Positions 11,269 to 57,936 of a DNA stretch of 64,000 bases are shown in pieces. The DNA lies in IMG/VR virus record IMGVR_UViG_3300042196_000418; one strand, 5' to 3'. The notes under the pieces are model-generated. The model searched no databases. It was not told the DNA's origin and worked only from the letters and a program-made list of their open reading frames with translations. The translations under genes and the position numbers were made by a program. The DNA comes from a virus (lineage: Duplodnaviria > Caudoviricetes). Within the stretch, counting starts at the first letter, position 1. Every line of letters starts with the position of its first letter.

Positions 11269-11697
11269 CTACTTCTTGCGCAGTGCTTCCGCGATCTCGG
11301 CATCGAGCTGCGCCGACGTCTTGCGGTCCGTGCGATGCCCGACGAGAACTGTCGCGGTACGTAAGCCGTGGCGATGTGCCGTAAGCATCCGATGCGTACC
11401 GTCGAGAACAGTGCCGTCATCGAAAGCCAAGATGGGACTTGCATGGAGAGCTTTTGCGAGTCCGCCGCGCGCCTTCGCCCACTGCTCGATGGTTTCGATT
11501 CGATCTAGATCGTCTTTATCGAGTGGTTGTCGCGCGTAGTCTTCAAGCGTTCCGACACCTGAAAAACGGAACCACCCTAAGGGACGCTTCTCTTCTGTCC
11601 AGGGCAGATCAAATTCATCACCTTCGAGAATGAACTCGGCGTCTGGCGATCTTGTGGTGACGTCGTTAACAACCTTCAGACCCTTCACGCCCGTCAC
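11269..11697 (-). CDS. ParB/Srx-like domain protein with C-terminal AQLDxEI motif
   Basis: PILAFDDGTVLDGTHRM; ends KTSAQLDAEIAEALRKK. Confidence 0.7.
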   Translation of the reverse strand: MTGVKGLKVVNDVTTRSPDAEFILEGDEFDLPWTEEKRPLGWFRFSGVGTLEDYARQPLDKDDLDRIETIEQWAKARGGLAKALHASPILAFDDGTVLDGTHRMLTAHRHGLRTATVLVGHRTDRKTSAQLDAEIAEALRKK

Positions 11698-12216
11698 TCA
11701 CGCGCACTCAACGCGGTTGGTGCGGCACCATTCGTAGGCCGCGTCTTTCGCTGCGGTCATCGCAGCCTTCTTGCTTGAATAGCCGCCTTCGGCGACGAGC
11801 GACTCGGTGAAGCTGCCCGTGTCGCTGTCGACCGTGGCGAGCGCCCACCACGTGCCGCCCTTCTTCAGCGCTCCGTAGTACACGCCGTCGCCTTTGCTGC
11901 CCATGTACTCGGCGTCGTCCCAGTCGAGGTGCGGCGGCGCGCCGTACTTCGCCTGCGTCTTTGAATAGGCGCTTTCCGTCTCCGGGATCTGTTCGGTGAC
12001 AGTGAAGCTATGGGCGCCCTTTGATTTCTCGTTGAGCACGTGGACTGCCGCGCTGTCCTTGATGAGACCGCGTGGATCGGCGAGGAAGTATTCGCGCACG
12101 TAAGAAGGGATCTGCGAGCCCTTCTTCCATTTCCCTTCGCCGCGCTTTACCGCCAGCAGGCCAAAGCCTGAGATGGCTCGTTGAACCTTTGCCGTCCATG
12201 TCGATTCAGACTTCAT
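11698..12216 (-). CDS. Hypothetical protein
   Basis: Clean, coupled ORF. Confidence 0.65.
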   Translation of the reverse strand: MKSESTWTAKVQRAISGFGLLAVKRGEGKWKKGSQIPSYVREYFLADPRGLIKDSAAVHVLNEKSKGAHSFTVTEQIPETESAYSKTQAKYGAPPHLDWDDAEYMGSKGDGVYYGALKKGGTWWALATVDSDTGSFTESLVAEGGYSSKKAAMTAAKDAAYEWCRTNRVECA

Positions 12217-12422
12217 TTGTACCGAACCTCGTCGATATGCTCAGCCGCCTTCTGGACGGCCTGCCACGCCTTGTCGAGGGCCTTATAGGTGGCCGGCGGA
12301 GCGGCGCCTTGTAGCGCGAATGCTTGGGTGAGTTCGCCCTGCACCTCGCCCAGCAGCTCGAAGATGAGCGTAAGCTTCCCGTACATCGCAGGGTTGTTTC
12401 GTTTCGCCTCCGTGCTCGCCAT
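12213..12422 (-). CDS. Hypothetical protein (probably leaderless)
   Basis: TACCAT 6 nt upstream of the ATG; coupled to the next gene. Confidence 0.55.
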   Translation of the reverse strand: MASTEAKRNNPAMYGKLTLIFELLGEVQGELTQAFALQGAAPPATYKALDKAWQAVQKAAEHIDEVRYK

Positions 12423-12485
12423 GCAGCGATGGTAACAAAACGACTGGACTTTCGTCCATTTTGTTACCGTCGAGTCGCACGTCTG

Positions 12486-12758
12486 CTAGCCGATCACCTT
12501 CCCGCAGTGCGGGCACGTCGGCTTGGGCAGCGCGATGCCCTGGATCACGTCGTGGAGCGACACCTCCAGGAGCTTGGCGATGCGGAACGCGATCGTGGTG
12601 CTCACCTCGGAGCGCCCCGAGGTCATCTCGACGCGCTGGCTGTGCGAGATCGGCAGCGCGCGCTCGACGGTGAGCCAGTTGCCGAAGCGAGCTCGCAGCG
12701 CGCGTAGCGTATCGAGCACGTTCTGCTGCTCGATGCGGGACAGGTCGCGGTACGGCAT
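12486..12758 (-). CDS. XRE-like HTH protein with CPHC zinc knuckle
   Basis: Helix pattern ...SEVSTTIAFRIAKLLEVSLHDVI...CPHCG; directly downstream of the transposase. Confidence 0.6.
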   Translation of the reverse strand: MPYRDLSRIEQQNVLDTLRALRARFGNWLTVERALPISHSQRVEMTSGRSEVSTTIAFRIAKLLEVSLHDVIQGIALPKPTCPHCGKVIG

Positions 12759-12760
12759 GA

Positions 12761-14125
12761 CTACTCGATCTCCTTCGGACGATCGAACCGTGCACGCGTT
12801 GTCTCAGGAGGCTGCATGCTTCCGAAGTCAGGCAGCTTGGCGATCAGATCTTGCGCCCAGTAGCGCGGATCGACGTTCAGCTCCTGCACTGCCGTGATGA
12901 GCTGCGCGATGTTGTGACAGACGAGGCGGAGCATCACCTCCGCGCACTGCGCGTTCAGGGCACGCGATCGGAGCGCGTGCCCGAACCGCGACTTGATGGA
13001 ATTCATGCCCGCCTCGGCCAGCGTGCGCCAATCGTAGTTCTCCCAATATAGGTCCTGGTCGTCTTTCATCCTGTTGTAGAGGCGACCGACGGTCTCGGGC
13101 TGGGTCTTCCCGGTGACGTTGTCTCGAAAATCAAAGAACGGCGTGGCGCCGATCTCCTCGACGGCGAGGACGTTGTACCAAGAGTTGTAGGCTGAATCGC
13201 CCAGCCACTTGGCCACGCGCCCGCCGTTGGCCACGATGCGCCGGACCAGCTCGGGCATGAGCGGGCATTCACCGATTTTATCCGTGACCTGCGCAGCGGG
13301 AGCCACGAGCGTCCGCACGCCAAAGACGATCGTCGCGTTGAGCCAGCGGTGCCTCAGCGTGGGAAGTCGTTGCTGCTCTTCCTTCCCGTGCTTGCGCGTG
13401 AAGTGGTGATCGTACACAGAGCTTCCGAAGCCGGTACCGTCGATCGCGAACGTGTCCTCAAGACCGATGAGCGGCAACGCGGAGCCCGCGAGGAGCCGAT
13501 GGAGCAGCACCATGTGCTCGGGCTCTGCGAACACGCGGAGCAACGTGTTGTAGGACGGCACCTGCGTCATGCGGATGAGACCCGCCTTGCAGTAGAGCTG
13601 GACCTGGACAACAGCCTCAGCGGCGGTCAGGTTCTCGAAGGCTCTAATCAGCGCGGTCAGCAGGACATCACGCAGCGGAATTGCGGGCCGACCATTCTCG
13701 CCGATCACGCGACCACTCAACCCGAGGCCGTCTACAAGCAGCTCGCAGTAGTGGGGAGCCAGGTGCGGGATCAGCGTCCGGCAGGCATTCGTCGCCTTCC
13801 AGTCGCGCGTGAACGCCCTCCTTAGCTCCTTCGGCTTGCGCGGCTTCTGCGTCACGATCAGCTCGCTACCGTCCGCCAGCTTCAGGACGTGAACGACGGC
13901 CCAAATGTGCTTGCAGCGATGGGGTCGATCGTGGCCACCGAGCCGGGACCAATCGAGGCACGAGCATGTCTCGGCCTTCGTGTCGACGACGTAGGTGCTG
14001 CCGTTGCTCGCTGCGCTCGGCACGAGGTACTTCGCGCCGACCAGAACCTTGATCGCGTCCTTCTTTGCCTTGGCGATCGCAAGACCCCGCTGCGAGCGGA
14101 CGTCCGAGGAGATCTCTTCGTTCAT
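12761..14125 (-). CDS. Transposase: N-terminal SWIM zinc finger plus IS4/IS5-superfamily DDE domain
   Basis: CSCLD...CKHIWAV (SWIM); AIDGTG, LGDSAY, YDWRTLAEAGMNSIK (YREK-like) and LVCHNI. Confidence 0.9.
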   Translation of the reverse strand: MNEEISSDVRSQRGLAIAKAKKDAIKVLVGAKYLVPSAASNGSTYVVDTKAETCSCLDWSRLGGHDRPHRCKHIWAVVHVLKLADGSELIVTQKPRKPKELRRAFTRDWKATNACRTLIPHLAPHYCELLVDGLGLSGRVIGENGRPAIPLRDVLLTALIRAFENLTAAEAVVQVQLYCKAGLIRMTQVPSYNTLLRVFAEPEHMVLLHRLLAGSALPLIGLEDTFAIDGTGFGSSVYDHHFTRKHGKEEQQRLPTLRHRWLNATIVFGVRTLVAPAAQVTDKIGECPLMPELVRRIVANGGRVAKWLGDSAYNSWYNVLAVEEIGATPFFDFRDNVTGKTQPETVGRLYNRMKDDQDLYWENYDWRTLAEAGMNSIKSRFGHALRSRALNAQCAEVMLRLVCHNIAQLITAVQELNVDPRYWAQDLIAKLPDFGSMQPPETTRARFDRPKEIE

Positions 14126-14208
14126 GATATCTATTGTATAGCTGGTAGATATGACAGATCATGGAATTGACTCCGTGCGCTAACCGATATACAAGCGCTA
14201 TCAACAAC

Positions 14209-14427
14209 ATGGCGACCAAGACGAAACCAGCGGCCAAGAAGGACACGTCGGAAAAGAAGCGCCGCAAGGCCGTACTCAAGGACAAAGGGATCCTGGTCCG
14301 CGTCACCGCAGACGAGAAAGAAGCGATCGAGGCGGCAGCGAAGAAAGAGCACCTCGCCGTCTCGACATGGTTGCTGACTGTGGCGTTTCGCGAGATCGAG
14401 AGGCAGGCGAAGGCCGCTGCGAAGTGA
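14209..14427 (+). CDS. Ribbon-helix-helix DNA-binding protein
   Basis: ILVRVTADEKEAIEAAAKKEHLAVSTWLL; divergent from the transposase. Confidence 0.7.
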   Translation: MATKTKPAAKKDTSEKKRRKAVLKDKGILVRVTADEKEAIEAAAKKEHLAVSTWLLTVAFREIERQAKAAAK

Positions 14428-15306
14428 TCAGTTCAGATCGGATCCTTCCTCCGAGACGGGCACGGTCAGCGCGTACAGCGCTCCGTGCTCGTTCGCGCCG
14501 TGGAACGCGATGACGCCCTTCTCAAGTAGGCGCAAGAGATCATGCCTGAGCGTCGCCTCATTGAGCTTGCGGCCCTTGCGATGCAGACGGCTCTCGACCT
14601 GGCGCGCAATGAAACGCTGACCCAGCGGCAGACTCTCGTTCGAGAGGACGTCGACAATCATCGCGGGGATCGAGTCGACGCGCGCCGCGACGTCAACGCC
14701 AGGAAGCGCCCACGTCGTGTTGTGGTGCGCGCCGTGACGCTGTATTCGCTTCTTGCGCTCAAGGTACTTCAAGAGGCTCCAGACGTTTGGGAGCGCCAGG
14801 CGAATCCTCTTTGCAATCTCGCTCGCCCGGAGACCTGTCCGATCAGCGTCGAGAAGCTTGAGAATTCGATCCGTGTGCTTTTGAGCTGGCCTCTTGTTTC
14901 CAGGCTCGCGTAGTCCCGCGCGTTGAAGGCGCCTTCGGAAGTTGGTGCGATCGACGCCTGCGATGCGCGCTGCATCGCTAATGGTGCCGTTTGACTGTTC
15001 CATGATGCGCGTGAGGTGATCGCGCTCGATATCTTCGGCCGCACGGCGCTTGGCCACCTCGATCGGTACATCAGTCGGCGTCTCGATCGTGGGCTCGGCC
15101 GTCGGCGTCTCGATCATGGGCTCGGGCGTCGACGCGGTAGTGGTGCCCGCAGCGTTCGTAGCGGCAGCGAGCCTTTCCTCGATCTTGAAGTAGATTGCCT
15201 CGCACTGATCGTCGGTGAGCTTGTCCACCGCTGCGATTGCAACCGCGAGCAGCTCGGCCTTGAGCAAGGCAAACTGGCGGGCCTTCTCGCGTGGGTTCGT
15301 CGGCAC
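14428..15306 (-). CDS. Fis-type HTH plus winged-helix DNA-binding protein
   Basis: ERDHLTRIMEQSNGTISDAARIAGVDRTNFRRRL followed by wHTH-like segments; 27-bp tandem repeat in the linker. Confidence 0.7.
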   Translation of the reverse strand: MPTNPREKARQFALLKAELLAVAIAAVDKLTDDQCEAIYFKIEERLAAATNAAGTTTASTPEPMIETPTAEPTIETPTDVPIEVAKRRAAEDIERDHLTRIMEQSNGTISDAARIAGVDRTNFRRRLQRAGLREPGNKRPAQKHTDRILKLLDADRTGLRASEIAKRIRLALPNVWSLLKYLERKKRIQRHGAHHNTTWALPGVDVAARVDSIPAMIVDVLSNESLPLGQRFIARQVESRLHRKGRKLNEATLRHDLLRLLEKGVIAFHGANEHGALYALTVPVSEEGSDLN

Positions 15307-15373
15307 CCATGTGATTTCGCACGACGACGCATCACGAAAGCCTGCGAATGATCTCGCGCTTCGTGACTCGGGC

Positions 15374-15514
15374 AGTAACAGATCGGGCTGTCGGCCGCGT
15401 TGTTTTGTTACCTTCGGATGCCCTAGGTAACAGAACGGGTCGGTCGAGCGTCTGATCTGTTACCTATCGGCGCGTCGAGTAACAAAACGGACCGCTGCGA
15501 CGGTGTTTGTTACT
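15374..15514. repeat. Three inverted-repeat units RGTAACARA...TYTGTTACY with 52-bp period
   Basis: Units at 15374-15412, 15426-15464 and 15478-15514; a fourth unit at 12431-12468. Confidence 0.8.
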
Positions 15515-16510: not shown

Positions 16511-16522
16511 CTACCAAACAGC

Positions 16523-18383: not shown

Positions 18384-18953
18384 GTGATCACGCTCGTGCA
18401 TGGCGGGCAGACCGGCGTTGATCGCGGCGGCCACGAAGGCGCGATCGACAACGGCTGGCGGATCGCGGGCTACATGCCGAGCGACGCGCGTGACGAGCTC
18501 GGTGCGATCCCAGAGGCGGTCGCACGATTTCTCGTGCCGCACGACAAGGCGCGCTACTCCGCGCGCACCGAGGCAAATGTAGCCTCGGTCAACGCTGCAC
18601 TGATCGTCGTGCGCGACGCGAACGCCCCGCGGGAGACGCCAGGCACTGCCATGACGATCGACCTGGCTGCCCAGCGGCAGCTGCCCCGCAAGATCGCCGA
18701 TCCGAGTACCGATGCGACGCAGATCGCCCTCTGGATTTGGAACGATCTGCTCAGGCCAAGCACGCTGATGCTGCCGCTCGACGGATTCCAGCCCGATCCA
18801 GTGACCACACGGCTGCTAATCGCCGGCCCACGCGAGAGTAAATGGCGTGGCGCGCAAGCCGATACAGCGGAACTCCTGCGCCAGATCGCCCTCGCGATCA
18901 CCGAGATCCGCACCCCCATCCCAGATCAAGATCTGTCCCTCCAGCAGCGATAA
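18384..18953 (+). CDS. SLOG-superfamily (YpsA-like / putative molybdenum carrier) protein
   Basis: GGQTGVDRGG, RTEANV and IAGPRES. Confidence 0.8.
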   Translation: MITLVHGGQTGVDRGGHEGAIDNGWRIAGYMPSDARDELGAIPEAVARFLVPHDKARYSARTEANVASVNAALIVVRDANAPRETPGTAMTIDLAAQRQLPRKIADPSTDATQIALWIWNDLLRPSTLMLPLDGFQPDPVTTRLLIAGPRESKWRGAQADTAELLRQIALAITEIRTPIPDQDLSLQQR

Positions 18954-19851
18954 TATCCGACCAGACATGCAGAAAAAGGGTCCCAAGTCCATTCCGAGCC
19001 AGGTCCAGCTGCCTGGTGGCATCACGCTCAAGGGCGTGCCGTTCAAGATCGTCGAGTACAACCCGGATGGCACACCAAAGCTGTTCGAGCTGCTGCCGCT
19101 CGGCGCTGCGTTCGACATCACGGAGAACGATACGTGCGTGCTGTTCGCACGGGAAACGGTCATGCGAAAGCCGTGGCAGAACGGGAAGCCGCCGAAGGAA
19201 AGCTGACCCGAACGTATCGGCCACCGCAGCAAGAAAAGTTGCGCGCTACGTGGAGCTGGGAGAGCGTTGAACCGTGACCGATTCCAAGAACATCACTGAA
19301 GCGACGACCCTCGCCGAGTTGCGCGAGCAATGCCTCCTCCTCGAAGTCATCTCACTCCGGCTCTATCCATCCATGAACGGCGAGGGACGCACAGCGGGCG
19401 TGCATCACGCGACGGGGATCTATGTGGACACAGGGCCGACCGAGGCGACGGCGATCGAGGCAGCCTTTGTCAAGCTCCGACACGCGCTTCTGTCCGAGCC
19501 ACTCAAGCAGTACCTTGAAGAGATCGAAGACAAGGAGTCGCGATGAAGCATCGTTTCATTCCCCTCGCCACGATCAAGCGCTACGAGACGCTCGCGCGCA
19601 AACGCAAGGTCTCCGAAGTCGCGCGAGGGCCCGGAGGCTTTCTGCCCGCATACAAGCGCGCAGGATCTGCGGCGGCGCTTCCCGACTACTGGCGGAGCAA
19701 GCGCGAAGCCTTCATCGCCCGGCACATGGCGCAGGTCGAGGAGCGTAACGAGCCTTTGTGGGATTTGGACGGGCATCCCTCTCGTCGTCACCTGGCGCTC
19801 ATTATGTGGGCCTACTCGCCCGCAGCAAGTCGTCTATAGAAGGACCTCGTC

Positions 19852-20361
19852 ATGACGCGCAAGAAGACAGGTGCCCAGCTCGATCGAGATGTCGCGAAGG
19901 CCCTCAAGAAGCCTGCGTTGACGGTCAAGCGCGCCGACGAGGTCATCCGCGCAGCGCAGCTGGAGGGCTTCAGCGGCCGATGCGGCCGTGTCGCGATCGC
20001 GATCAACAGCATCTTGTTTGACAACAAGGGGCGCTACGTCGTCGCCACGAACCCCGCGATCAACAAACACCGCGGGCAGCTGTTCATGGGTCACGTCGTC
20101 GTCGAGTGGAAGAAACGGCTGTTCGACGCAACGGGTGTCATCAACGACGAGGACACGATCGAGTCTTGGGGAATGGTCGACCACACCGATCCAGACTACG
20201 ACTACCTCACCGAGGACGAAGCCAACGACGGTCAACTTCACTACATCGACGACCTGTTCCGAAGTCGCGCAGAGCAAGAGAAGGCCATCGAGGTTGGAAC
20301 GCGGGGACAGTGCCCGCTGCGCGATGTGGAGAAAGCCCTCCGCGAGGCCATGGAGTCATGA
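19852..20361 (+). CDS. Papain/transglutaminase-like protein with N-terminal AQLD motif
   Basis: KKTGAQLDRDVAKAL; possible Cys-His-Asp triad GRCG...GHVVV...FDATG. Confidence 0.55.
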   Translation: MTRKKTGAQLDRDVAKALKKPALTVKRADEVIRAAQLEGFSGRCGRVAIAINSILFDNKGRYVVATNPAINKHRGQLFMGHVVVEWKKRLFDATGVINDEDTIESWGMVDHTDPDYDYLTEDEANDGQLHYIDDLFRSRAEQEKAIEVGTRGQCPLRDVEKALREAMES

Positions 20362-20861
20362 TGCGCAAGAAGATCAGCGAAGAGGACGCAGTGAAGATCG
20401 CCGAGCTGCGTGCTACCTATGAAGAGACCCGGCGCACCGCAGCAGTCGAACCTACTGCGGCAACACGGGCCGCCGCGAAGGAGGCATGGGCAGCGCTGGA
20501 CGCCGCGAGCCCCCGCACGGCGACGAAGACGAGCTTTGCAAGCCGCGCCGGCAAGAGACAGGACGCGCAAGGGATCCGCGCTTATCGACAGGGCCGATCG
20601 CACGCGACGAAGAAGACCCCAGCCCAGCTCAATCGCGAAATCGCCGCCGCGCTCGCGTCCGAGGACGAGGGCGTCTTCTACCTCACCGACACCAGGGAGC
20701 AGCCGCTGGAACTCGAGTTCTCATCCCGCCCCGCGGCAAAGCGCGCGGCAATGAAACTCGTACGCGAAGGCGTGCACCCCAGGGTTGAAATCTGGCACCG
20801 ATGGCACGGCGGTCGCTACATGCAGGGCCTCGCAGACGAGGACGGCTGGTCCGATGTCTAA
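20358..20861 (+). CDS. Hypothetical protein with internal AQLNREI motif
   Basis: HATKKTPAQLNREIAAAL (motif at 20610-20654). Confidence 0.7.
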   Translation: MMRKKISEEDAVKIAELRATYEETRRTAAVEPTAATRAAAKEAWAALDAASPRTATKTSFASRAGKRQDAQGIRAYRQGRSHATKKTPAQLNREIAAALASEDEGVFYLTDTREQPLELEFSSRPAAKRAAMKLVREGVHPRVEIWHRWHGGRYMQGLADEDGWSDV

Positions 20862-21882
20862 GTTACGCTACGCAAAGTTCACGCTGACCGACGGCACGCG
20901 TTTCATCCTGCGCGTCACCAGCGAGTCGCCCACCATCGTCCGAGGCTACGAGGTCAATGCCGACGGCGACGAGGTCGTTCCGCCCGGCGCCTGCAACCGG
21001 TTGCGCATCGTCGGGCGCGACTTCATCAAGAAGACCGTCGAAATGCGCATGAACAACAAGTACGCGACGCTTGAGGTCGTACCGCACGAGGCGGGCGCCA
21101 TCGCGAAGCTTGTGAACATCGTCACCGACACCGCGACGCTCGCCGAAGCGCTGTACCCAGGCAGCGGCCTTCCGACAATGAACACCGGCGTCTACGAGGG
21201 CACACGGACTCCGATCAGAAAGCTCACCGGCCGTGAGGTCGTCACGGTAGCCGGCACGACCGCGGGCGCGAAGGTCCTGTCCGACGAGACCTGGATCATC
21301 GACCGCTTCGGACCGCTCGGCGCGAGGCAGATCAAGAAGCTGCGCGAGCTCACGAAGGAAGCATTATGAGCAGAAAACTGAACTACGGCGACTTCTCGCG
21401 GACCGGCTACCAGGACTGCGCCAACGTGTTCGACACGAACAACCACAACGACGCCTGGCACCGCCTCGGCAAGCCGCGTGGGACCGGCGTCGCCATCAAG
21501 GTCGTGCGTGAGGCGTGGGGAAACGACGAGGACCAGTACGAGCAATGGCTTTCTCAGGCCGACGTCGACGAGATTCTCAAAGACGGCCTCGAACTGCGGT
21601 CCGCATATCGGGCGTGGCGTGACGCCTGGCAGGGCTGCGCGGAGAGCGCCGTGAAAGCCGACCTGAAGGAGTGGATCGCGCAAGAAGACGAAGAAGACCG
21701 ATGAAGTCCAAGGCCGATCCGCACAAGCTCATGATCGAAGGCAAAGGGCCCTCGACAATGGGCCGCTGTGCGTGCGGCACCGTCTTTCTGTCGGGTCTCG
21801 GCCGCGGCACCGAACGGCAGCAAGTCCGCGACCAGCATACCAGGCACCTCACGAACGTTGCGTGGATGGAGTCGTTGCCAAA

Positions 21883-22293
21883 ATGACCAAGACCCCTGCC
21901 CAACTAGACGCTGAGATTGCCGAAGCGCTCGGCAAGGACCGATCGACGCATCCGAACGTCATCGAATACGCCGTGCAATACCTTTTCAAGAACAAGACAC
22001 CAAAGGCTGCCGCCGCGGCCACGGCGAAGAAGCTATCCGGCGGTCCGAATATGTTCTTGGACGTGCATCCACCCGACGTTGTGAAGATCGACGTGTCCCA
22101 GCTCGAAGGCGCTGTTTGGGATCGAATGGTTGACTACACGCTCAAGGGCGTCGCCAGCTTCAAGGCCGACAAAGCACACTGGGCCCTCGACGGCGCTCTT
22201 CAACGCTTCCACCAGCGCCCGAGCCTGCGCGCAGAGCTCAAGCGCCGCGTGATCGAACGGCTTGGCCGCGATCCATTCGAGGGCCTCGAATGA
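21883..22293 (+). CDS. Hypothetical protein with N-terminal AQLDAEI motif
   Basis: MTKTPAQLDAEIAEAL; ATGA-coupled. Confidence 0.75.
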   Translation: MTKTPAQLDAEIAEALGKDRSTHPNVIEYAVQYLFKNKTPKAAAAATAKKLSGGPNMFLDVHPPDVVKIDVSQLEGAVWDRMVDYTLKGVASFKADKAHWALDGALQRFHQRPSLRAELKRRVIERLGRDPFEGLE

Positions 22294-22733
22294 CAAAGTC
22301 CGCCCAACTGGATCGGGAGATCACCGAAGCGCTAAACGGCCCCGCATGGCTGGTCTCTCAAACGAAAAAGCGCGTCGATCCGAAGTCCTTCCGCGATCTC
22401 ATCCAGAAGGCCGTCAAGTTCCCCGAGTTCAAGGCACCCTCGAAATACACGTGGGACTTGATCCGTGGCGTCCCTATCCGCGAGCTGGATCCAGGATCGA
22501 AGTTCGACTATGAGACGGATCCCGAGAGTAACGACGAGGAAGCCGGCGAGAATCTCGCGCGCTACCACCGGGTTGAAGCGCTCCTCGTCCACCAGGGAAA
22601 GAAGCCTTGGCCCATTGTCGTGGGTCAAGACGGCGCGGTGATCGACGGCCACCATCGGCTAGCCGTGCTCTCCGATCATGGAGCCGAAACGGTAGACGTC
22701 CTGTGGGTCCGGCCAAAGGGCAAGTACCGGTGA
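22290..22733 (+). CDS. ParB/Srx-like domain protein with N-terminal AQLDREI motif
   Basis: MTKSAQLDREITEAL; PIVVGQDGAVIDGHHRL. Confidence 0.75.
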   Translation: MTKSAQLDREITEALNGPAWLVSQTKKRVDPKSFRDLIQKAVKFPEFKAPSKYTWDLIRGVPIRELDPGSKFDYETDPESNDEEAGENLARYHRVEALLVHQGKKPWPIVVGQDGAVIDGHHRLAVLSDHGAETVDVLWVRPKGKYR

Positions 22734-23122
22734 CCAAGACCGCCGCCCAACTCGACGCCGAAATCGCCGAGGCCCTGCACGCCAAGGCCGTCCAATCATC
22801 AGAGGCCGCCAAGCGCCTGTCCGACGGCGTCTATGACGCCGCCGAGCACCGCGCCGCGGCCAAGGCACATCGACGCACAGCTCGACTTCACAAAGCTGAT
22901 CCGACCGGGGGCGACGCTGCGTGGCTGCACGAGCTGGCCGCGATCAATCACCGACAAGCAGCCACGGCACGTGCCTCTCGAGCACTCACGGCGGCGAACC
23001 CGGCACGGACGCAGAAGACCTTCGCCGCGTTCAAGGAGAAGCTCTCCGCCGCCAACGAGCACACGTCGATGGCCCAGGAGTACGCACGACAGGCGCTCGC
23101 CGCGGCAAAAAAGCGCCCATGA
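22730..23122 (+). CDS. Ala/His-rich helical protein with N-terminal AQLDAEI motif
   Basis: GTG start, TKTAAQLDAEIAEAL. Confidence 0.7.
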   Translation: MTKTAAQLDAEIAEALHAKAVQSSEAAKRLSDGVYDAAEHRAAAKAHRRTARLHKADPTGGDAAWLHELAAINHRQAATARASRALTAANPARTQKTFAAFKEKLSAANEHTSMAQEYARQALAAAKKRP

Positions 23123-24643: not shown

Positions 24644-25762
24644 ATGCAGGACCTTTACGCGGTGCTCGGTGTCGAGCGAGCAGCATCCCAGGCCGACCTC
24701 AAGAAGGCGTACCGAAAACTCGCGCAGCAGTACCACCCCGATCACCACCCGGGTGACAAAAGCGCCGAGGACAAGTTCAAGGAAGCTGCGAACGCCTACC
24801 ACATCCTCTCGGACGACGAGAAACGTGCCGCCTACGATCGCTGGGGCCACGACGGCCTACGCCGCGGCGGCGGTGGAGCTGGTCCAGGCCCCGGCCCAGG
24901 AGGATTCGGCGGCGGCTTCGAGAACGTTGAGGATATCTTCTCCGCGTTCGGCGATCTATTCGGCGATTTCTTCGCGGGGCGTGGGAGAGCGCGACAGGCA
25001 GGGCGCGGCGCCGATCTCAGCGTCGATCTGTCGATCGCGTTTCACGAGGCCGTGTGGGGTGTGCGAAAGAGCGTCGAGATCACGCGATCGGTTGGCTGCT
25101 CGACGTGCCGCGGGACTGGCGCAGCAAACGGCGTTAGACCAGAAGTCTGCCGCGGATGCCAGGGTAAGGGCCAAGTCACCCACCCCCAGGGTTTCTTCAT
25201 GGTGCAGACGACGTGCGCGCAGTGTCAGGGCGCTGGCAAAACGATCAAAGATCCCTGCCGTGACTGCCGTGGTCGCGCGATCCGGTCGGAGACCTCGACG
25301 CTGACCGTGACCGTGCCGGCCGGCGTCGACAAAGGGCAGACACTTCGCATCGCCGGCAAGGGCGAGAGCCTCCCTGGCGGCACCCCGGGCGACCTCTACG
25401 TCATACTGCTCGTCGCCGAGGACAAGCGCTTCGAGCGTGACGGCAACGACATTATCAGCGAGGTGCCCATCAGCTTCTTCCAAGCCGCGCTCGGCGGCGA
25501 GATCGAGGTCGACACACTCGACGAGGGTTGTGAAGGAACTGCGATCCTCGAGCTACGGCCCGGGACACAACCCGGAGACGAGATCGTGCGCCGCGGCCAA
25601 GGCATCCAGCACGTGACCGACCACGGTCGCGGCGACCACTACATCCGCTTCTCCATCGAGATTCCCAAGAAGCTGACCTCCAAGCAGGAGAAACTCCTGC
25701 GCGAGTTAGCAGCAGATTTCGGTGAGGATCGATCACGCCCCAAGAAGAAGGCGAAACGGTGA
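24644..25762 (+). CDS. dnaJ: Chaperone DnaJ (full-length class A)
   Basis: J domain with HPD, G/F linker, four CxxCxGxG-type repeats and C-terminal domain. Confidence 0.95.
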   Translation: MQDLYAVLGVERAASQADLKKAYRKLAQQYHPDHHPGDKSAEDKFKEAANAYHILSDDEKRAAYDRWGHDGLRRGGGGAGPGPGPGGFGGGFENVEDIFSAFGDLFGDFFAGRGRARQAGRGADLSVDLSIAFHEAVWGVRKSVEITRSVGCSTCRGTGAANGVRPEVCRGCQGKGQVTHPQGFFMVQTTCAQCQGAGKTIKDPCRDCRGRAIRSETSTLTVTVPAGVDKGQTLRIAGKGESLPGGTPGDLYVILLVAEDKRFERDGNDIISEVPISFFQAALGGEIEVDTLDEGCEGTAILELRPGTQPGDEIVRRGQGIQHVTDHGRGDHYIRFSIEIPKKLTSKQEKLLRELAADFGEDRSRPKKKAKR

Positions 25763-42297: not shown

Positions 42298-42707
42298 GAG
42301 GATTTTCTCCCCCAGCGCTTGAGGCGCTTGGGGCGCGGCGCCATCTTGACGAGTCCGTGCCGCTGGAGCAGCCGACGAAAGTTCGAACGATCGACACCGG
42401 CCAAGAGCGCAGCATCCACCGCCGATCCCTTCGCGGACTCCATCGCGCGCACGAGATAGTTGCGCTCGAACGCGGTCGTTGCCAAGCGCTTCGCTTCGGT
42501 GAGCGGCATCAAGGTCCAGTCGACGATCAGTTCGAGCTGACGTGCATCAACCGCGATCGGCAGGCTCCAGTGCTGCTGTGCACCGCGCCAGCGGCAAATT
42601 CGAAGTTGCCCGGAGCTCTTGGAGGTGCCGACCACGATCGCAGCACCCTTGGAAGAGGTGCGCATACGATCGTAGACGATCTGGCCGATCAAAAGGCTGG
42701 TCTTCAC
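42294..42707 (-). CDS. Fis-type HTH protein lacking an AAA+ domain
   Basis: FERNYLVRAMESAKGSAVDAALLAGVDRSNFRRLLQRHGL. Confidence 0.75.
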   Translation of the reverse strand: MKTSLLIGQIVYDRMRTSSKGAAIVVGTSKSSGQLRICRWRGAQQHWSLPIAVDARQLELIVDWTLMPLTEAKRLATTAFERNYLVRAMESAKGSAVDAALLAGVDRSNFRRLLQRHGLVKMAPRPKRLKRWGRKSS

Positions 42708-43525
42708 GCTGCATCCTCCGTTGCTGGCAGCGCGAGCGGCAGGTCGGGCAAGACCTCAGGCGCATGCTCGGCCAGGAACACACGCCACGATCCTGGCTTC
42801 TTTTCTCCGCCACGCGTGCCCTTGACGCCACAGCCCCACAGTCCCTGGATCTTGGTCAGGCGTGGCCGGGCACGATCCTCCATCGCGACTGCACGGCGTG
42901 CGAGATCTGGGTGCTTCTTCGCGAGCTGGATGAGTTCAGCGGGCTTGAGCGACGGACAAAACCAGCAGCTCGACTTCGGTGGCACTGGCAGGCCCGCGGC
43001 GGCGATCTCCTTCATGCACCGATCACGATCCCAGCCCCACTCACGCAGGGGATAGATCCAGTTCCACGGCCCCTTGGTCTCGACGCCACCACGGCGCGAG
43101 TCGCATGGGCCCGCGTCGTAGCCGATCGCGCGACGGACCTTGCCGCCGGCCTTGATGTGCGCAGCGAAGTAGTCGGCGCAGGCGGCGTCGAGCGGCTCGC
43201 CCTTCCACTTGAGCGAGCACTTCTTGTAGCCGAACGCGAGCGACGGCAGCGTTTGGTTCACGAGGCAATTCTCCTCAAGCGTCGCGTAGTGCCCGTGCTT
43301 GGGCCGCTGCACGACGTACTGCACGTCGGTGATCGTCGGGAAGCCCACCTCGGCGAGCCACTTGTCGATGATCGGACGGTACGCGTAGGTCTCGGGCCAC
43401 TCGTTGCCGACCTGTGCGTGGCCGATCCAATGCGGTCGGATGCCGAGACGCCACCAGCCGACGAGCACTGCGGTCGAATCGACGCCCATGCCGTACGAGA
43501 GAGCCAGTAGATTGCCTGCGCTCAT
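42704..43525 (-). CDS. PAPS-reductase-like PP-loop protein 1
   Basis: SYGMGVDS, CSLKWK, YPLREWGWDR and PPKSSCWFCP. Confidence 0.8.
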   Translation of the reverse strand: MSAGNLLALSYGMGVDSTAVLVGWWRLGIRPHWIGHAQVGNEWPETYAYRPIIDKWLAEVGFPTITDVQYVVQRPKHGHYATLEENCLVNQTLPSLAFGYKKCSLKWKGEPLDAACADYFAAHIKAGGKVRRAIGYDAGPCDSRRGGVETKGPWNWIYPLREWGWDRDRCMKEIAAAGLPVPPKSSCWFCPSLKPAELIQLAKKHPDLARRAVAMEDRARPRLTKIQGLWGCGVKGTRGGEKKPGSWRVFLAEHAPEVLPDLPLALPATEDAA

Positions 43526-51657: not shown

Positions 51658-51669
51658 GTCCTATCCAGG

Positions 51670-52585: not shown

Positions 52586-52969
52586 ATGGCGAAGAAAAAG
52601 TCGCTCGACAGCTACTTGCAGCTCGCGAATCATGCGGCCCGTTGGGCAGCTCCCAACAGTCCCTTCGCGGCGGCGAATCCAGCGCTGCGTCCGTACATGA
52701 CGCGTGTGCCTAGGGAGATCGGACCTCGCATCGATCGTCAGTTCTGGTTTGGTGAAGTGCTCGATGATCTCCGCCGCGCTGCCGAGCGCGACCTCAATTC
52801 AACCGAGCTGAAGCGCCTCGATAACGTCCTTCGACTCATGATCGCGACACCTCCTGCTGGCTATGGCTCGGACTCGAAACACATGACGACTCATCACGCG
52901 GCCCGCAAGAAGAGTCCAGCTCAGCTCGACCGCGAGATCGCGGAAGCGACCTCGCGGTCTCGACGCTGA
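52586..52969 (+). CDS. Hypothetical protein with C-terminal AQLDREI motif
   Basis: Ends HHAARKKSPAQLDREIAEATSRSRR. Confidence 0.7.
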   Translation: MAKKKSLDSYLQLANHAARWAAPNSPFAAANPALRPYMTRVPREIGPRIDRQFWFGEVLDDLRRAAERDLNSTELKRLDNVLRLMIATPPAGYGSDSKHMTTHHAARKKSPAQLDREIAEATSRSRR

Positions 52970-53191
52970 TCACGCTTCAACGCGTGCCGAACACACCGGG
53001 AAGTTGCGTCGAGACAACGCCGTCAGCACTGCGCAGCCGCGCCTCCCGCTGACGCCAGCTCGGCAGTTAGTGTACAGATCCCGGAGAGAACGAAACACGG
53101 GTGCTTTGCGCACCCACCCCACACTTCAACAGCTAGCGCGGGAGTGCCGCGGCCCGTGATACTTTCCGCTTCCAACCACAACGAGGTCTCC

Positions 53192-53938: not shown

Positions 53939-54230
53939 AGGACTGAGGTCTCGGCCGCCGCGCAGCTGATATACTCGCCGTAACGAGGCAGACGTCGACC
54001 AGGGCACTCGAACAAGCCCGAACGCAGGTGCGCCGCGGCTTTGACCAAGGCTACCCGGTCGACGCGGTGGCGGCCTTCATCGAAGATGTCGGACCCGACG
54101 TCGACGCACGTTTGTGGGCGTGGTGGATGACGCTCTCAAACCTGACGACCGGCCCAAAAACGAACGTGGTTTTCGGCGCTACTACGAGGGTGTGTACGAA
54201 GACCTCGAAAATCTATGGCCGCGACGCTGA

Positions 54231-54632
54231 TCAACGCGCCATGCCCGGAAGTTTGGAGGCGACGATACCCTCGTCGCTGCGCAGTCGCGCATGCCGCTGT
54301 CGCCAGCGCGGCATGTAGTGATCCATCAACGTGTAGAAGCGTGCGTCGTGCCCGGATCCCTTCTCGTCACCGATGAGGAGGTGCACGAGCTCGTGTACGA
54401 TCACGTACTCGAGGTCCGCTGGCTGCATCGTTGCGAGCGCCTGGCTGATCCACATGCGACGCGTGGCCAGGTTGAGCGATCCAAACCGCCGCATCTTCTT
54501 GACCCGAAAGTCGCTGAGAGCCACGCCGAGAATGGGTTGCCACTTGTCGAGGAGCGTCTGCACGCGAGCCACGAGCCGCGTGCGCTCCTGGTGGTTCGCG
54601 ATTTCGCGATCGAGCTGGCGTGCCGTCTTCAT
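54231..54632 (-). CDS. YgjP/M48-like zinc metallopeptidase with N-terminal RQLDREI motif
   Basis: KKMRRFGS, LEYVIVHELVHL and GHDARFY..MD..MP.W. Confidence 0.85.
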   Translation of the reverse strand: MKTARQLDREIANHQERTRLVARVQTLLDKWQPILGVALSDFRVKKMRRFGSLNLATRRMWISQALATMQPADLEYVIVHELVHLLIGDEKGSGHDARFYTLMDHYMPRWRQRHARLRSDEGIVASKLPGMAR

Positions 54633-54648
54633 GTACCGAGTACCAAGG

Positions 54649-54997
54649 TCATTCTTTCCCTGGGCGATGAGCCAGCGCATCGGCGATCTCGCGATCTAAC
54701 TGTGCAGAAGACTTTTTCGTCGCCGTCGTCCCCTCGCGTGCATCGATAATCTCTTTTGCCTCTGCAATGATCGGCGCTCGGCGCCGCATTGGTCCACCCC
54801 CAACTGAAGCCAGAAATGGCAAGGAACGCAGGTGCGTCCTTGATGGTCTCGAAGCGCCAGCTCCCCGGCGTGCCGAGCAGCGCGACGACCCAGTGTCCAC
54901 CATCCATGCGCAGCTCGACGTCGTAGCTGCGCCCCGCCTGATCGAGCGCCTTGGTGGAAAGAGGGATGCGCTCGGTGAGCTTCCACTTGCTGGCCAT
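54649..54997 (-). pseudogene. Frameshifted gene with C-terminal AQLDREI motif
   Basis: 7-bp tandem duplication TCGGCGC at 54771-54784; removing one copy joins MASKWKL...WTNAAP to IIAEAKE...KKSSAQLDREIADALAHRPGKE*. Confidence 0.75.
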
Positions 54998-55283
54998 GGC
55001 ATCTCGATTCTAGTTGTTATCGTCGTTGGACGCGACGATCACGACAGCTCCCGATCGTAGCTCAAGCACTCGCCGTCGGACGAATCTGCCGGGGCCACCC
55101 CCGGAGATCTTTGCTCATCGCCCACGCAGGACGGCGACTAAGGCACCACAAGAAGAAGCGCCCGTTCCAGTAGATCAAATCCGTCGACTCTGGTTGTAAA
55201 GGCGCTCCATGCATGTCCACGACGCTACAAGGCGCCTCTGACGTTCGTGGGCCGGCGCCAGGCACGGAGCCGCGGTCCCGTGG

Positions 55284-55838
55284 CTACGGTCGGAAATTAT
55301 CCCACGCTTCATGCACGCCATGGAGCTCGGGATGGAAATGATGGTCACGCATCTCTTGGTACGCACGATCCTTCGTCCAGTGGTCGTGCAACACGCGATA
55401 GCGGCCGATAACGTACCCAGTGCGATCTTGGCCGTGGGTGCAGTGGACGAGCCACAGCTCGTCGGCGGTCGCTCCAACGAGCAGTGTCTCTGCCTCGTCG
55501 ACGAGCAGGGGATCCGGCCCTTTGAACACACTCTTCAGATCGTCCCACGTGCTTTGATCTCCCTCGGGTTGAATCGCGAGAACATGCACTTCGATGCCCA
55601 TGCGCGCCGCGAGGTCATCGGATCCTTCCGTGTCAAAGTTCAACTTGATTACGTGCACGTGTCGACCGTTCGCGAGCGCGCGGATGTAGTTCCAACCCTC
55701 CTGCGTCGTGATCTGGCCAGAGCGCCAGACGTTGGTGTTGACCTGCGCGAGGTTAGGGATCCCGTGCGTGTAGTGCATGGGAGAGCAGGCGGTGAGCGTG
55801 GCGAAGACGAGGACGAGGGCGAAGGTACGAATCGACAT
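55284..55838 (-). CDS. Protein-tyrosine/dual-specificity phosphatase-fold lipoprotein
   Basis: HCTHGQDRTG (CX5R); lipobox LTAC. Confidence 0.85.
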   Translation of the reverse strand: MSIRTFALVLVFATLTACSPMHYTHGIPNLAQVNTNVWRSGQITTQEGWNYIRALANGRHVHVIKLNFDTEGSDDLAARMGIEVHVLAIQPEGDQSTWDDLKSVFKGPDPLLVDEAETLLVGATADELWLVHCTHGQDRTGYVIGRYRVLHDHWTKDRAYQEMRDHHFHPELHGVHEAWDNFRP

Positions 55839-55873
55839 GCCGCGAGGCTAGCGCGATAGTGTCTCGCGCAGAT

Positions 55874-56203
55874 CTAGAACGCCTTCAGCTTCCACTTCTT
55901 CGGCGAGACCTGCTTGAGCGCGTCCTCGACGCTCGAGTGCTGCGAATCTCGGACGGGCCCCAGCTCGTCGAAGAAGCTGACCTGCCACTTACCGATGGAC
56001 TTGGTCGAGGGGTGGACGATCGCCGACTCGTCGCGCCTCATTCTCGACGAAAATTCGGCGCCCCGCAGCGGACCCACGACCTTCCAGTCACAGCTCTTGA
56101 TCCCAAACGCGAGCGTGCGACAGACCACGCGCAGCGGAGACTTGTGCCGTGCCAGGGCCTCTGCGATCTCACGATCAAGCTGGGCGGACTTGTTCACCGA
56201 CAT
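55874..56203 (-). CDS. Hypothetical protein with N-terminal AQLDREI motif
   Basis: MSVNKSAQLDREIAEAL. Confidence 0.7.
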   Translation of the reverse strand: MSVNKSAQLDREIAEALARHKSPLRVVCRTLAFGIKSCDWKVVGPLRGAEFSSRMRRDESAIVHPSTKSIGKWQVSFFDELGPVRDSQHSSVEDALKQVSPKKWKLKAF

Positions 56204-56385
56204 GGGCCTCCGTGGTCTTGGGGTTCCGCGTTCCGCGCGTTCGAGTCTACTGCGTGGAACTGCAAAGCCCCAATTTCGAGCGAGCGATCGCCACAAGTGA
56301 GGCAGCCTTCGCGAAACAGCTCTCGTGCTACGATCAAAGGAGGCGTCGAAGCCGCGGCCTCCGCGCAACGCGCAACACCTAAAGT

Positions 56386-56898
56386 CTATTCCTCGATCGT
56401 CGCGCCAGCACGCTCGGCCGCCGCGCGGCCCGCCTTCGTGAAGGGGCCGACCACGACCAGCTCGGGCGAGACCTCGGACCGGTACGCGTCGAACAAGACC
56501 TGCGCGAGCCCGCGTCCGCGCGCATCGGAATCGACCCAGAAGTGATGCACGTAGGGCCGGTCGAGTTCGACGGAATACGCGAGACCGGCCAACGGATCCT
56601 CGACGCCGCCCTTGGGCAAAACGATCAAAATGCGGCCAGAGCGCCCGCCGCCATACATTTTACCGACGGTGAAGATCAGATCCCAAGCACTCGGAATGCC
56701 TGCGAGCGTGACCTCGATCGGCTCGCGCCGTGTGATGCGCTCGCCCATGAGCGCCTCATGCACGCGCTCGCGCGTGATCCGCTCCATGCCGCCGTTGCCG
56801 TCAGGCCGCTTCGCCAGCGTCTCCTCGATCTCGCGCTCGAGTTGCTTGGCGGGCGTCTTCTTCTTCGCGGGAGCCGCCTTCTTCGGCGTGCGCGGCAC
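56386..56898 (-). CDS. GNAT acetyltransferase-like protein with N-terminal KQLEREI motif
   Basis: FWVDSDARGRGLAQVLF (motif A); GAGGAG upstream of the GTG. Confidence 0.75.
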   Translation of the reverse strand: MPRTPKKAAPAKKKTPAKQLEREIEETLAKRPDGNGGMERITRERVHEALMGERITRREPIEVTLAGIPSAWDLIFTVGKMYGGGRSGRILIVLPKGGVEDPLAGLAYSVELDRPYVHHFWVDSDARGRGLAQVLFDAYRSEVSPELVVVGPFTKAGRAAAERAGATIEE

Positions 56899-56900
56899 GG

Positions 56901-57410
56901 CTACTCCTCGCTCTGCGCGCTCGCAATTTCCGCCTGCAACGCACTCTCCAGTGCAGCCTTCTCGCTTGCGGAGAGCTTCTTCCACGCCGCACGCACCATG
57001 TCGTCGGGAGTCATCCACTCGAAGGCCCCAACCATCTGCGTGAGAGCCGCAGAGCGATTCATGCGCGGGTTCGCGAGCACCTGCTTGGCCATGAGCATCG
57101 AGCCGTAACCGTAGTTACCAGCGAGCAACCAGCCGACGCGCTCTGCCACCAAATTGGGGTCTTCGCTCATCGCCTTGTAGAACTCCGCCTGTGCCTCCTT
57201 CCGATCGGAGAGCGGTGCCCGACGAAGCCCGTCGAGATGCTTGCGCGCATCTGCAAGCTCGCGACGCTCGTACTCCGCCTGACTCGGAACGCCGGAGGCT
57301 TTGGCCTTCGCGCCCGTCGCCGCTCCCTGCTTCTTTTCGCGCATGCGCAGGACCTCGTCGATCTCACGATCGAGCTGCGCGCCACGCGTCTTCGTACCGT
57401 TGTTCGCCAT
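56901..57410 (-). CDS. Hypothetical protein with N-terminal AQLDREI motif
   Basis: KTRGAQLDREIDEVL. Confidence 0.75.
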   Translation of the reverse strand: MANNGTKTRGAQLDREIDEVLRMREKKQGAATGAKAKASGVPSQAEYERRELADARKHLDGLRRAPLSDRKEAQAEFYKAMSEDPNLVAERVGWLLAGNYGYGSMLMAKQVLANPRMNRSAALTQMVGAFEWMTPDDMVRAAWKKLSASEKAALESALQAEIASAQSEE

Positions 57411-57435
57411 CAGCCTATGCTCCCTTTCGTTCGAA

Positions 57436-57936
57436 TCAATCGTCGGTGTTCATGGCGTCATCGACAGACAAAAAGCCCCGACGAACGGATTCCGCGACGT
57501 CCTCGTCACGCCCTTTGGACATTCCGGTGCGGCGGACGTTGTCAGCAAACTTCCGCAGCTCTTCGTCGCGGAGCGACTCCCCGATCTCACGATCAAGCTC
57601 GGCAGCACTCTTCGCAGAGGGCTTGCAGGCGCCCGGCACATACTGCTGGCGTGAGCGACATCGCGAACGATGCCCGAGCTTGCCGGCATCAACTCCGTGC
57701 TTGGTCAGCTTACTGAGCCAGTTCGCTGCTCCACATTCTTTGCATTCGATCCAGGTGTCACCGTCTGGCGCAGGTTCGATCAACAGCTGATCGACCGGGT
57801 TCCCAGCCTCATGACCGACACACTCCGCATGTACTGCGGGCTTCCCTTTTTCATAGGCGATCGCTCTGCCAGGCTTGATCCTTTGGGAGCACGCTGGACA
57901 GGTCGACTCGAACTTTGCCGTGATGATTTTGGGCAT
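57436..57936 (-). CDS. Zinc-finger protein with internal AELDREI motif
   Basis: CPAC...HAEC, CKEC...H...C and KSAAELDREIGESL. Confidence 0.7.
   Translation of the reverse strand: MPKIITAKFESTCPACSQRIKPGRAIAYEKGKPAVHAECVGHEAGNPVDQLLIEPAPDGDTWIECKECGAANWLSKLTKHGVDAGKLGHRSRCRSRQQYVPGACKPSAKSAAELDREIGESLRDEELRKFADNVRRTGMSKGRDEDVAESVRRGFLSVDDAMNTDD

Follow-up and report, generated by a model that had tools for sequence, protein, structure and literature searches.

Several systems are known in which a short peptide or a recurrent linear site is shared by many proteins, and they offer the closest described parallels to a peptide tag that occurs in 13 copies in a 64,000-nucleotide stretch of DNA, referred to here as the window, from a huge uncultivated virus (Duplodnaviria; Caudoviricetes; IMG/VR record IMGVR_UViG_3300042196_000418). 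An original prediction had described this tag, from the letters of the window, as a basic patch followed by an amphipathic helix that enrols diverse cargo by binding a common partner. The module is clade-specific, selected at the level of the peptide, portable, composed of two parts and carried by very diverse small proteins; we infer that its helix is read by one common partner.

The capsid-targeting sequence (CTS) of phage T4 is found on the internal proteins IPI-III and on Alt, is removed by the gp21 prohead protease and has been proposed as an evolutionary route for loading varied proteins (PMC9026906). In common with the tag, it is a brief peptide shared by proteins that are otherwise unrelated and evolve fast; it can be moved to other proteins and joins an address to processing, as the tag may also do. 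The CTS, however, is strictly N-terminal, spans about 10 residues and is cut at L/I-x-E, whereas only about 53% of 108 tags are N-terminal. Unlike the CTS, the tag also occurs at internal and C-terminal positions, is predicted to form a capped helix with a basic prefix, has a site of its own (R-x-H-A-T-K-K) and is present on about 12% of genes. Head proteins of the giant phages phiKZ, 201phi2-1 and SPN3US contain S/A-X-E sites and are associated with the gp175/gp245 proteases (PMC9026906, PMC10052503); targeting roles are presumed for their propeptides. Here, too, a short, conserved linear site recurs, several times over, in many proteins of a huge phage, but R-x-H-A-T-K-K is unrelated in sequence to S/A-X-E.

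Encapsulin cargo-loading peptides are comparable address peptides. The encapsulation peptides of bacterial microcompartments (BMCs) consist of an amphipathic helix of 15-20 amino acids and a linker at either terminus, and came to light when homologues that have the extension were set beside those that lack it (PMC4594438; for further literature see PMC11157265); the helix behaves as a module in its own right. The same features recur in the tag, with a predicted helix of matching length and a hydrophobic face, a variable hydrophilic linker and an extension that only some homologues possess, tagged and untagged orthologues sharing the conserved domain. Encapsulation peptides, however, share a pattern and not a sequence, whereas the tag is nearly invariant over hundreds of carriers; unlike them, it has a basic prefix, a companion site and copies between domains. 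No BMC shell family was recognised in the part of the window open reading frames (ORFs) that was scanned.

Polyvalent proteins of phages and conjugative elements combine 2-15 effector-type domains per polypeptide and have been described as packaged, injected and processed by zincins, with 12 MPTase clades (Iyer et al., 2017; PMC5512222). Part of this vocabulary is found among the tagged proteins, namely a YgjP-like zincin, ART-PolyVal, PARP and ParB_N domains and a weakly matching GNAT. Combinatorial shuffling of modules may be a further likeness, and zincin release and delivery with DNA have been proposed for polyvalent proteins. Relatives of the window hold up to five modules per polypeptide, whereas most window carriers have a single module. 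Unlike polyvalent proteins, the tagged modules are mostly small and novel, occur in separate short genes or in strings of 2-5 modules and are joined by a conserved junction code; the word 'linker' is absent from the text of the polyvalent-protein paper (PMC5512222).

A portable and clade-specific helix

A six-frame scan of the window recovered all 13 copies where they had originally been placed, with the consensus K-K-S/T-x-AQLDREIAEAL. A hidden Markov model (HMM) built from these copies, a check that had been proposed with them, gave clean separation: scores range from 21.6 to 30.3 bits for the copies, whereas no other segment of a window ORF of at least 30 aa exceeds 7.4 bits. The DNA pattern back-translated from QLDREI occurs six times in the window, against 0.00 in 100 dinucleotide-preserving shuffles. 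A rough GC3-based gene call, in which gene starts are inferred, gives about 104 genes, so that about one gene in eight (about 12%) is tagged. The distribution of eight N-terminal, three C-terminal and two internal copies agrees with the earlier account, the copy on the GNAT-like protein being N-terminal if that gene begins at the coupled GTG at 56898. All copies lie in protein frames, and twelve are solid; the ninth is out of frame with its upstream ORF and belongs to a frameshifted gene or to a 46-aa mini-ORF.

Codon positions 1, 2 and 3 are identical between window copies in 79, 83 and 45% of comparisons, respectively. Pairs of codons for the same residue are identical at a frequency of 0.479 among the 13 copies, against 0.453 expected from window codon usage; over 101 tags from the window and its relatives, the corresponding values are 0.546 and 0.486. 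Synonymous sites are thus randomised to about the level of codon usage, which places selection on the peptide and argues against a DNA repeat, as had been concluded from the synonymous differences between copies.

In order, the tag comprises a basic K-K pair, an S/T-P/A-A-Q segment, which we take to be a classical helix N-cap, a predicted autonomous amphipathic helix of three turns (L-D-R-E-I-A-E-A-L) and a linker rich in Pro, Gly, Ser and Arg. Over 108 tags, conservation is highest at L+1 (108), followed by I+5 (105), Q0 and E+4 (103 each), R+3 (99) and D+2 (93), while positions +10 to +17 vary, with A, S, R, G, P and K being frequent there. Glutamate is present at +7 in 71 of 101 tags, giving about 70% of them an I-A-E that fits the L/I-x-E pattern of the CTS. 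In an AlphaFold2 (AF2) model of the 55874-56203 family, residues 4-18 are predicted to form a helix (pLDDT about 71), which is followed by a five-residue linker and a beta-rich domain (pLDDT 88-97); Foldseek found nothing in the PDB that resembles this model at E <= 0.001. The residues L+1, I+5, A+8 and L+9 share one face (80-180 degrees), and the model is in keeping with the amphipathic helix first proposed.

Two alleles of the helix, QLDREIAEAL and QLQREIDEAL, occur within the same genomes. Q at +2 is paired with D at +6 in 7 of 7 locus tags and in 30 of 31 protein-set tags, an i/i+4 covariation with D+2/A+6 whose cases include orthologues and are thus not all independent; an acidic residue is found at +2 or +6 in 96 of 101 tags. 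Since these two positions are spaced i/i+4 beside the hydrophobic face, such an exchange is the expected product of a specific electrostatic contact with a partner.

In a profile search of all PDB sequences, the sole matches of the tag were coiled coils designed de novo around the heptad EIAKALR (CC-Hept and CC-Type2; PDB 5eza, 7nfp and others), whose E-I-A-x-A-L-x is the same helix-packing unit as R-E-I-A-E-A-L. The second half of the tag is thus a textbook helix-packing unit. The designed coils, however, require four heptads for assembly, against roughly one and a half in the tag; the likeness is one of helix chemistry, not of homology. No natural PDB chain matched the profile at E <= 10, and a supposed likeness to the Mpa-binding helix of Pup was dropped for this reason. 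Beta-clamp/PIP-box, signal-peptidase A-x-A and H-Phi-S/T autoproteolysis motifs were rejected as well, as their spacing or context did not fit, the sites being located in basic linkers without structure.

The tag is clade-specific. Neither Pfam nor PHROGs holds a model for it, and neither the tag motif nor the R-x-H-A-T-K-K site is printed in any paper found, in line with the view that the motif had not been described before. The strict tag pattern has no match in 2.9 million IMG/VR contigs, where a looser AQLDREIA pattern gives 22 single chance-type matches, all in unrelated coiled coils lacking the prefix; 50,697 isolated phage genomes gave one chance match (E = 7). Nor is the tag a general feature of GC-rich proteomes, a concern raised with the original prediction: species-representative cellular genomes (596 Gb) contain 86 pattern matches, of which just five score 18 bits or more; multi-copy cases are absent, and so is the basic prefix. 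A megablast search of 20-kb window stretches against phage and plasmid collections returned no match, and a feature search of the ESM Atlas on the tag region returned no usable one. The tag is frequent in soil-type metagenome contigs of up to 502 kb. Among 120 pattern-positive metagenome loci, 49 hold true tags and 22 hold at least two, and as many as 10 tagged ORFs share one contig of 5.9 kb (L027). When 1.84 billion representatives were scanned exhaustively by HMMER with a profile of site and helix, 575 clusters were obtained at E <= 0.001, of which 52 are at <= 1e-10. One protein of 264 aa with eight junction-profile matches (P0167) is a translated DNA repeat array (LLQCGPAQLGREI x8), a false positive and not a tag; this type of error may recur in motif censuses.

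That the tag is portable and its carriers otherwise dissimilar, as first stated, is borne out by several lines of evidence. The 108 non-redundant tags comprise about 57 N-terminal (about 53%), about 40 internal (about 37%) and about 11 C-terminal ones (about 10%). BLAST groups 89 protein parts downstream of tags into 66 clusters and 42 upstream ones into 35. A Pfam family is lacking in more than 90% of 93 carriers; the matches are to DUF6496 (three carriers), YgjP-like, PARP/ART-PolyVal (PARP 1.2e-7, ART-PolyVal 1.3e-5), SprT-like, ParB_N (5.4e-4) and DUF7837. The family of 55874-56203 includes 68 orthologues, 56 of them tagged, and the remaining 12 begin directly at the domain or hold a decayed tag (e.g. 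P0044). Similarly, the window gene 20785-21369 is untagged and its homologue in L116 is tagged at the C-terminus, while the family of L024:10890-11699 has members of both kinds. In another lineage (L025), 20 kb are free of tags, and two orthologues of tagged proteins stop or start exactly at the tag position. In the distant relative on a 502-kb contig (L232), the region syntenic to 50-61 kb of the window retains tags on the GNAT and the zincin, and its other tagged genes differ. A maximum-likelihood tree of the 55874-56203 family (89 columns, most forks open) was too poorly resolved for counting gains and losses of the tag, and mini-ORFs consisting of a tag only (L060, L089, L055) were left out, as they may be frameshift remnants like the ninth copy.

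Two further proteins combine tags in unusual ways. P0153 has two tandem tags 10 residues apart, the first of the QLQREIDEAL type and the second of the QLNREIAKAF type, and in P0076 the truncated C-terminal tag of one module is fused to the N-terminal tag of a ParB-like module. These cases suggest that fusions and fissions occur at tags.

The largest tagged family is that of the YgjP-like protein 54231-54632 (Pfam 9.3e-23), here called F1. Its N-terminus, MK[TS]ARQLDREIA[DN], is invariant over 13 orthologues. In the AF2 model, a long helix (residues 4-35) with the tag at its tip is followed by three strands, the HExxH helix and one further helix, a predicted fold that is the minimal zincin core. 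According to Iyer et al. (PMC5512222), no domain is more frequent in polyvalent proteins than this core, which is probably the enzyme that processes them. A complex prediction of the F1 zincin with a site+helix junction scored 0.01 against a mark of 0.32, which speaks neither for nor against docking.

A second motif at the joints between modules

The original picture of a single tag holds for the helix and overlooked its two-part nature. The tag is a composite of the helix and a second linear motif ahead of it, R-x-H-A-T-K-K, which also occurs independently at junctions in relatives and has the full consensus [SG]-[SKR]-R-x-H-A-T-K-K-[ST]. In the locus set, H-(H)-A/S-T-K-K precedes 21 of 51 non-N-terminal tags and none of 57 N-terminal ones. 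In 84 tagged proteins from the large collection, the pattern H-[AS]-[TR]-[KRVIM] has 84 occurrences where 4.2 are expected (no more than 13 in any of 200 shuffles); the window taken by itself shows no enrichment of the motif. After reclassification with the HMM, 33 of these 84 sites are followed by a helix and 51 have neither a helix nor residual similarity to one.

The sites lie in a hydrophilic dip of about 15 residues, in which the hydrophobic fraction is 0.04-0.11 against 0.255 overall and the share of G, S, P, R, K and T is 0.56-0.67 against 0.40. Consecutive sites are mostly 62-160 residues apart, and in relatives the site alone is also found in linkers that join shuffled modules of 60-110 aa. 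Splitting the proteins at helices and sites gave 154 segments with 25 multi-member families, 17 of which are found in two or more module contexts. All joints consist of a site, of a site with helix or, at N-termini, of a helix. One module, for example, begins 'MPAKKTPAQLQREIDEAL' in eight proteins and is joined in P0122 behind another module via '...AAHATKKTPPAQLEREINEAL'. Exactly one helix is present in 82 of the 84 proteins, with normally zero to three extra sites per polypeptide. Codons within the site are identical more often than expected (0.642 vs 0.500), alanine being nearly always encoded by GCG; the flanking codons vary, so that the site, too, is mainly a peptide-level feature, and uninterrupted DNA identity around sites is shorter than about 15 nt.

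An untagged protein of 90 aa at the head of the first tag cluster, 19274-19546(+), contains H-H-A-T in a seemingly folded region (...GVHHATGIY...).

Docking and the alternatives

On balance, the tag more likely than not serves as a portable address or docking label that a shared partner reads. The helix would insert its L/I/L face, flanked by alanines and the one obligatory acid (at +2 or +6), into a groove of a common partner encoded by the element or by its host. Docking would then gather in one place a large, fast-turning-over set of small effector-like modules, among them ParB/Srx-like proteins, GNAT, ADP-ribosyltransferase and the minimal zincin protease, and the H-A-T-K-K sites would either be processing sites at which modules are released at the destination or provide a second contact. 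By analogy with the T4 CTS, the processing of giant-phage head proteins and polyvalent proteins, the favoured destination would be the interior of the particle, with co-packaging and delivery together with the DNA; the ART-PolyVal, ParB-like, GNAT and zincin vocabulary of the few recognisable carriers tilts the reading in that direction. That the label leads to the virion is put forward tentatively and is open to considerable doubt. Still more speculative, and rather unlikely, is a proteome-wide two-part code, in which each polypeptide has one helix as a zip code and R-x-H-A-T-K-K joints, and a single reader gathers hundreds of mini-effector modules, perhaps cut by the co-targeted zincin. Such a code might amount to a non-covalent, re-assortable version of polyvalent proteins, with the shell or particle interior of the element as its reader.

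A number of observations weigh against the tag being an address label. The first six residues of the helix are conserved on every face, which fits an enclosed helix and other readings too. The window ORFs scanned yielded no recognisable gene for a capsid, portal, terminase or maturation protease, and no reader of the tag was identified, although no genome-wide search for one was made. About 12% of genes would be a large share for packaged cargo, and the relatives were retrieved using the motif itself, so that tag frequencies and densities in them are biased upward. Sites also occur at extreme C-termini ('...GHSTKRRRSQGKHR-stop' in P0102 and P0105), and the N-terminal 'MARHHATKK...' of P0205 and P0219 retains a whole site.

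The last two observations bear equally on a polyprotein-type processing code, in which the helix would be an exosite that recruits a protease, with F1 (54231-54632) as the candidate, and R-x-H-A-T-K-K the scissile site, with no separate hub or destination. At extreme termini cleavage would gain little, which speaks against a pure cleavage site, and about half of the tags belong to proteins of a single module, which offer no site for cutting. Even so, the sites have the hydrophilic setting, the domain-sized spacing and the position between shuffled modules that such a code calls for, and N-terminal tags mostly begin M-x-K-K-S/T, resembling the product of a cut between A and T in H-A-T-K-K. A predicted minimal zincin whose N-terminal tag is invariant makes up the largest tagged family, the processing of multidomain phage proteins by zincins has already been proposed (PMC5512222), and single propeptides of phiKZ and SPN3US are known to have several cleavage sites. 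Taken together, these points leave the processing code improbable, though not negligible. Slightly less probable again is self-association, whereby tags would bundle with each other in the manner of coiled coils and concentrate their carriers in an assembly or condensate without any reader. The match of R-E-I-A-E-A-L to the heptad of designed self-assembling coiled coils, the only PDB matches obtained, is consistent with it, as is the rule of one sticker per protein, and encapsulation peptides are reported to drive condensation (PMC12339742). One heptad and a partial one (11 helical residues) would, however, be very short for a stable bundle, a single sticker per protein would give closed small oligomers and not networks, and bundling leaves the conserved Q0, R+3 and E+4 and the basic prefix unexplained.

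The tag could also be a ligand of a host hub or a degron, mimicking or targeting a host chaperone, AAA+ protease or polymerase and thereby recruiting viral proteins or timing their turnover. Position independence is common among short linear hub motifs, the tags are on clustered small accessory proteins of early type, and a full-length DnaJ gene follows the first tag cluster both in the window and in L027. Yet the motif occurs in no cellular genome of the 596-Gb scan, which leaves no host template to mimic; no natural PDB ligand is similar, the Pup helix included; and in L109 the DnaJ gene is away from the tag cluster. We consider a host-hub role unlikely, a little more so than self-association. 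A recombination linker at the DNA level, kept as homology for module swapping and with no function of the peptide itself, is the least credible of the readings. Tags and sites do fall at the boundaries of module swaps, and there is the mild excess of identical codons at the site, but synonymous positions in the helix are essentially randomised, codons flanking the site vary, unbroken identity remains very short, and the i/i+4 amino-acid covariation and helix-capping design make sense only for a peptide. The codon tests largely refute this explanation, and its probability is very small.

Tagged genes of the window, their neighbourhood and the meaning of the tag

Table 1. Tag copies in the window, with the duplication upstream of tag 9.
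Feature	Coordinates	Strand	Position and sequence	Carrier	Score (bits)
Tag 1	11281..11322	-	C-terminal; RKTSAQLDAEIAEALRKK-stop	product of 11269-11697(-), 142 aa	27.9
Tag 2	19861..19905	+	N-terminal; MTRKKTGAQLDRDVAKAL	19852-20361(+), 169 aa	25.9
Tag 3	20610..20654	+	Internal site+helix junction; RSHATKKTPAQLNREIAAAL	20358-20861(+), 167 aa	26.2
Tag 4	21883..21930	+	N-terminal; MTKTPAQLDAEIAEAL	21883-22293(+), 136 aa	28.0
Tag 5	22290..22334	+	N-terminal; MTKSAQLDREITEAL	22290-22733(+), 147 aa, ParB/Srx-like (DGHHR)	
Tag 6	22730..22777	+	N-terminal; V/M-TKTAAQLDAEIAEAL, GTG start	22730-23122(+), 130 aa	27.2
Tag 7	52907..52951	+	C-terminal, degenerate site; THHAARKKSPAQLDREIAEATSRSRR-stop	52586-52969(+), 127 aa	30.3
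Tag 8	54597..54632	-	N-terminal half-tag; MKTARQLDREIAN	54231-54632(-), 133 aa, YgjP-like, predicted minimal zincin (F1)	
Tag 9	54673..54717	-	TKKSSAQLDREIADALAHRPGKE-stop	frame split from upstream ORF (start about 55000)	29.6
Tandem 7-bp duplication	54771..54784	-	GCGCCGA x2 on minus strand, upstream of tag 9		
Tag 10	56153..56203	-	N-terminal; MSVNKSAQLDREIAEAL	55874-56203(-), 109 aa, beta-rich domain (predicted)	
Tag 11	56815..56865	-	Near-N-terminal; KKKTPAKQLEREIEETL	56386-56898(-) or start 57018, GNAT-like	21.6
Tag 12	57348..57392	-	N-terminal; MANNGTKTRGAQLDREIDEVL	56901-57410(-), 169 aa	25.4
Tag 13	57571..57612	-	Internal; AKSAAELDREIGESL	57436-57936(-), 166 aa, zinc-ribbon protein	22.4

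The carrier classes named originally fared unevenly. The YgjP assignment stands (9e-23), and tag 8 runs on into the first helix of that protein. One ParB-like protein, the GNAT and the zinc ribbon have weak matches: the carrier of tag 5 to ParBc_2 (E 0.035) and to a ParB-like PHROG (3.6e-4), that of tag 11 to Acetyltransf_10 (1.6e-3) and that of tag 13 to DUF7837 (6.9e-4). The second ParB/Srx-like protein and the papain-like one gave no family match; the carrier of tag 1 contains a DGTHR motif and has no match in Pfam or PHROG. Many carriers have tagged counterparts in relatives, as for tags 2 (L113:1488-2012, L027:4675-5925), 5 (L116:5389-5955, P0083 and the fused P0076), 6 (L027:1321-1887), 11 (L232:5465-5971) and 12 (P0135, P0142), while the homologue of the tag 13 carrier (P0098, L135:467-1156) is tagged at the equivalent position. 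Tag 3 separates two modules, the C-terminal one of which is kept in L027:2274-2960 (P0090). As for tag 9, three-frame translation and per-frame GC2/GC3 indicate that a well-coding upstream ORF is thrown out of frame with the tag by the tandem duplication. With a single 7-mer, the upstream protein would end in tag 9; the alternative frame past the duplication terminates at the start of the next gene. Possible origins of the duplication are recent mutation, reversible slippage and an error of assembly.

The window has a GC content of 62% and is densely packed with small orphan genes. The gene 55874-56203 is on a contig of 288,627 bp, and the metagenome contigs that contain its orthologues reach 501,972 bp. 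Recognisable window genes encode Thg1, a metallophosphatase, an aldo-keto reductase, a DDE transposase, DnaJ, a radical-SAM protein and two PAPS-reductase-like proteins. The Thg1-like tRNA-His guanylyltransferase, 2226-3029(+), matches PF04446 at 1.8e-25. The DnaJ gene, 24644-25762(+), encodes a full-length type I protein with J domain, zinc-finger and C-terminal domains and lies just 3' of the first tag cluster, an order that is the same in L027; in L109, the DnaJ gene adjoins a homologue of 18384-18953. The DDE transposase (PF01609), 12761-14125(-), and the small gene 12486-12758(-) have homologues in L085 that are 69% and 93% identical, respectively, and adjoin the same HTH_8 regulator (14428-15306) and 15510-16112 gene. 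The PAPS-reductase-like genes (phrog_424) are 42704-43525(-) and 59508-60860(-), the latter kept at 62% identity beside a tag cluster of the 502-kb relative (L232:410-1651). In the region of this relative syntenic to the second tag cluster, L232:7607-8338(-) encodes an IF3 homologue (IF3_N and IF3_C).

Two untagged families are candidate partners of the tag. A beta-sandwich family (...DWIVxDIKIxxxSQF...GxLPGExF) is present once in the window, at 9280-9789(+), and three times in tandem in a single protein of the 502-kb relative (L023:190-1542), and recurs in seven tag-bearing loci. Collagen-like proteins (G-P-T/G-P-A) with a conserved C-terminal beta domain, fibre-like candidates, occur in relatives as adjacent paralogues directly beside a tagged gene (L024:8902-9420 and 9481-9987; L023:4137-5228; L084:2880-3389).

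New in this analysis are the site statistics, the independence of the site from the helix, the shuffling of modules, the rule of one helix per protein, the covarying alleles, the global count, the zincin model and the negative distribution tests. If the helix is a true address, the sequence alone singles out all the proteins which a huge uncultivated virus directs to a common place, dozens in each genome and 575 protein clusters or more worldwide, nearly all of them without known function. What huge phages load or co-localise, and how, could then be tested directly with a single peptide and a mutant of two residues, and the tag would be a natural, position-independent handle of 15-20 residues for foreign cargo. 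The junction code, in turn, shows how such elements may quickly re-assort mini-domains, which bears on the evolution of anti-defence repertoires.

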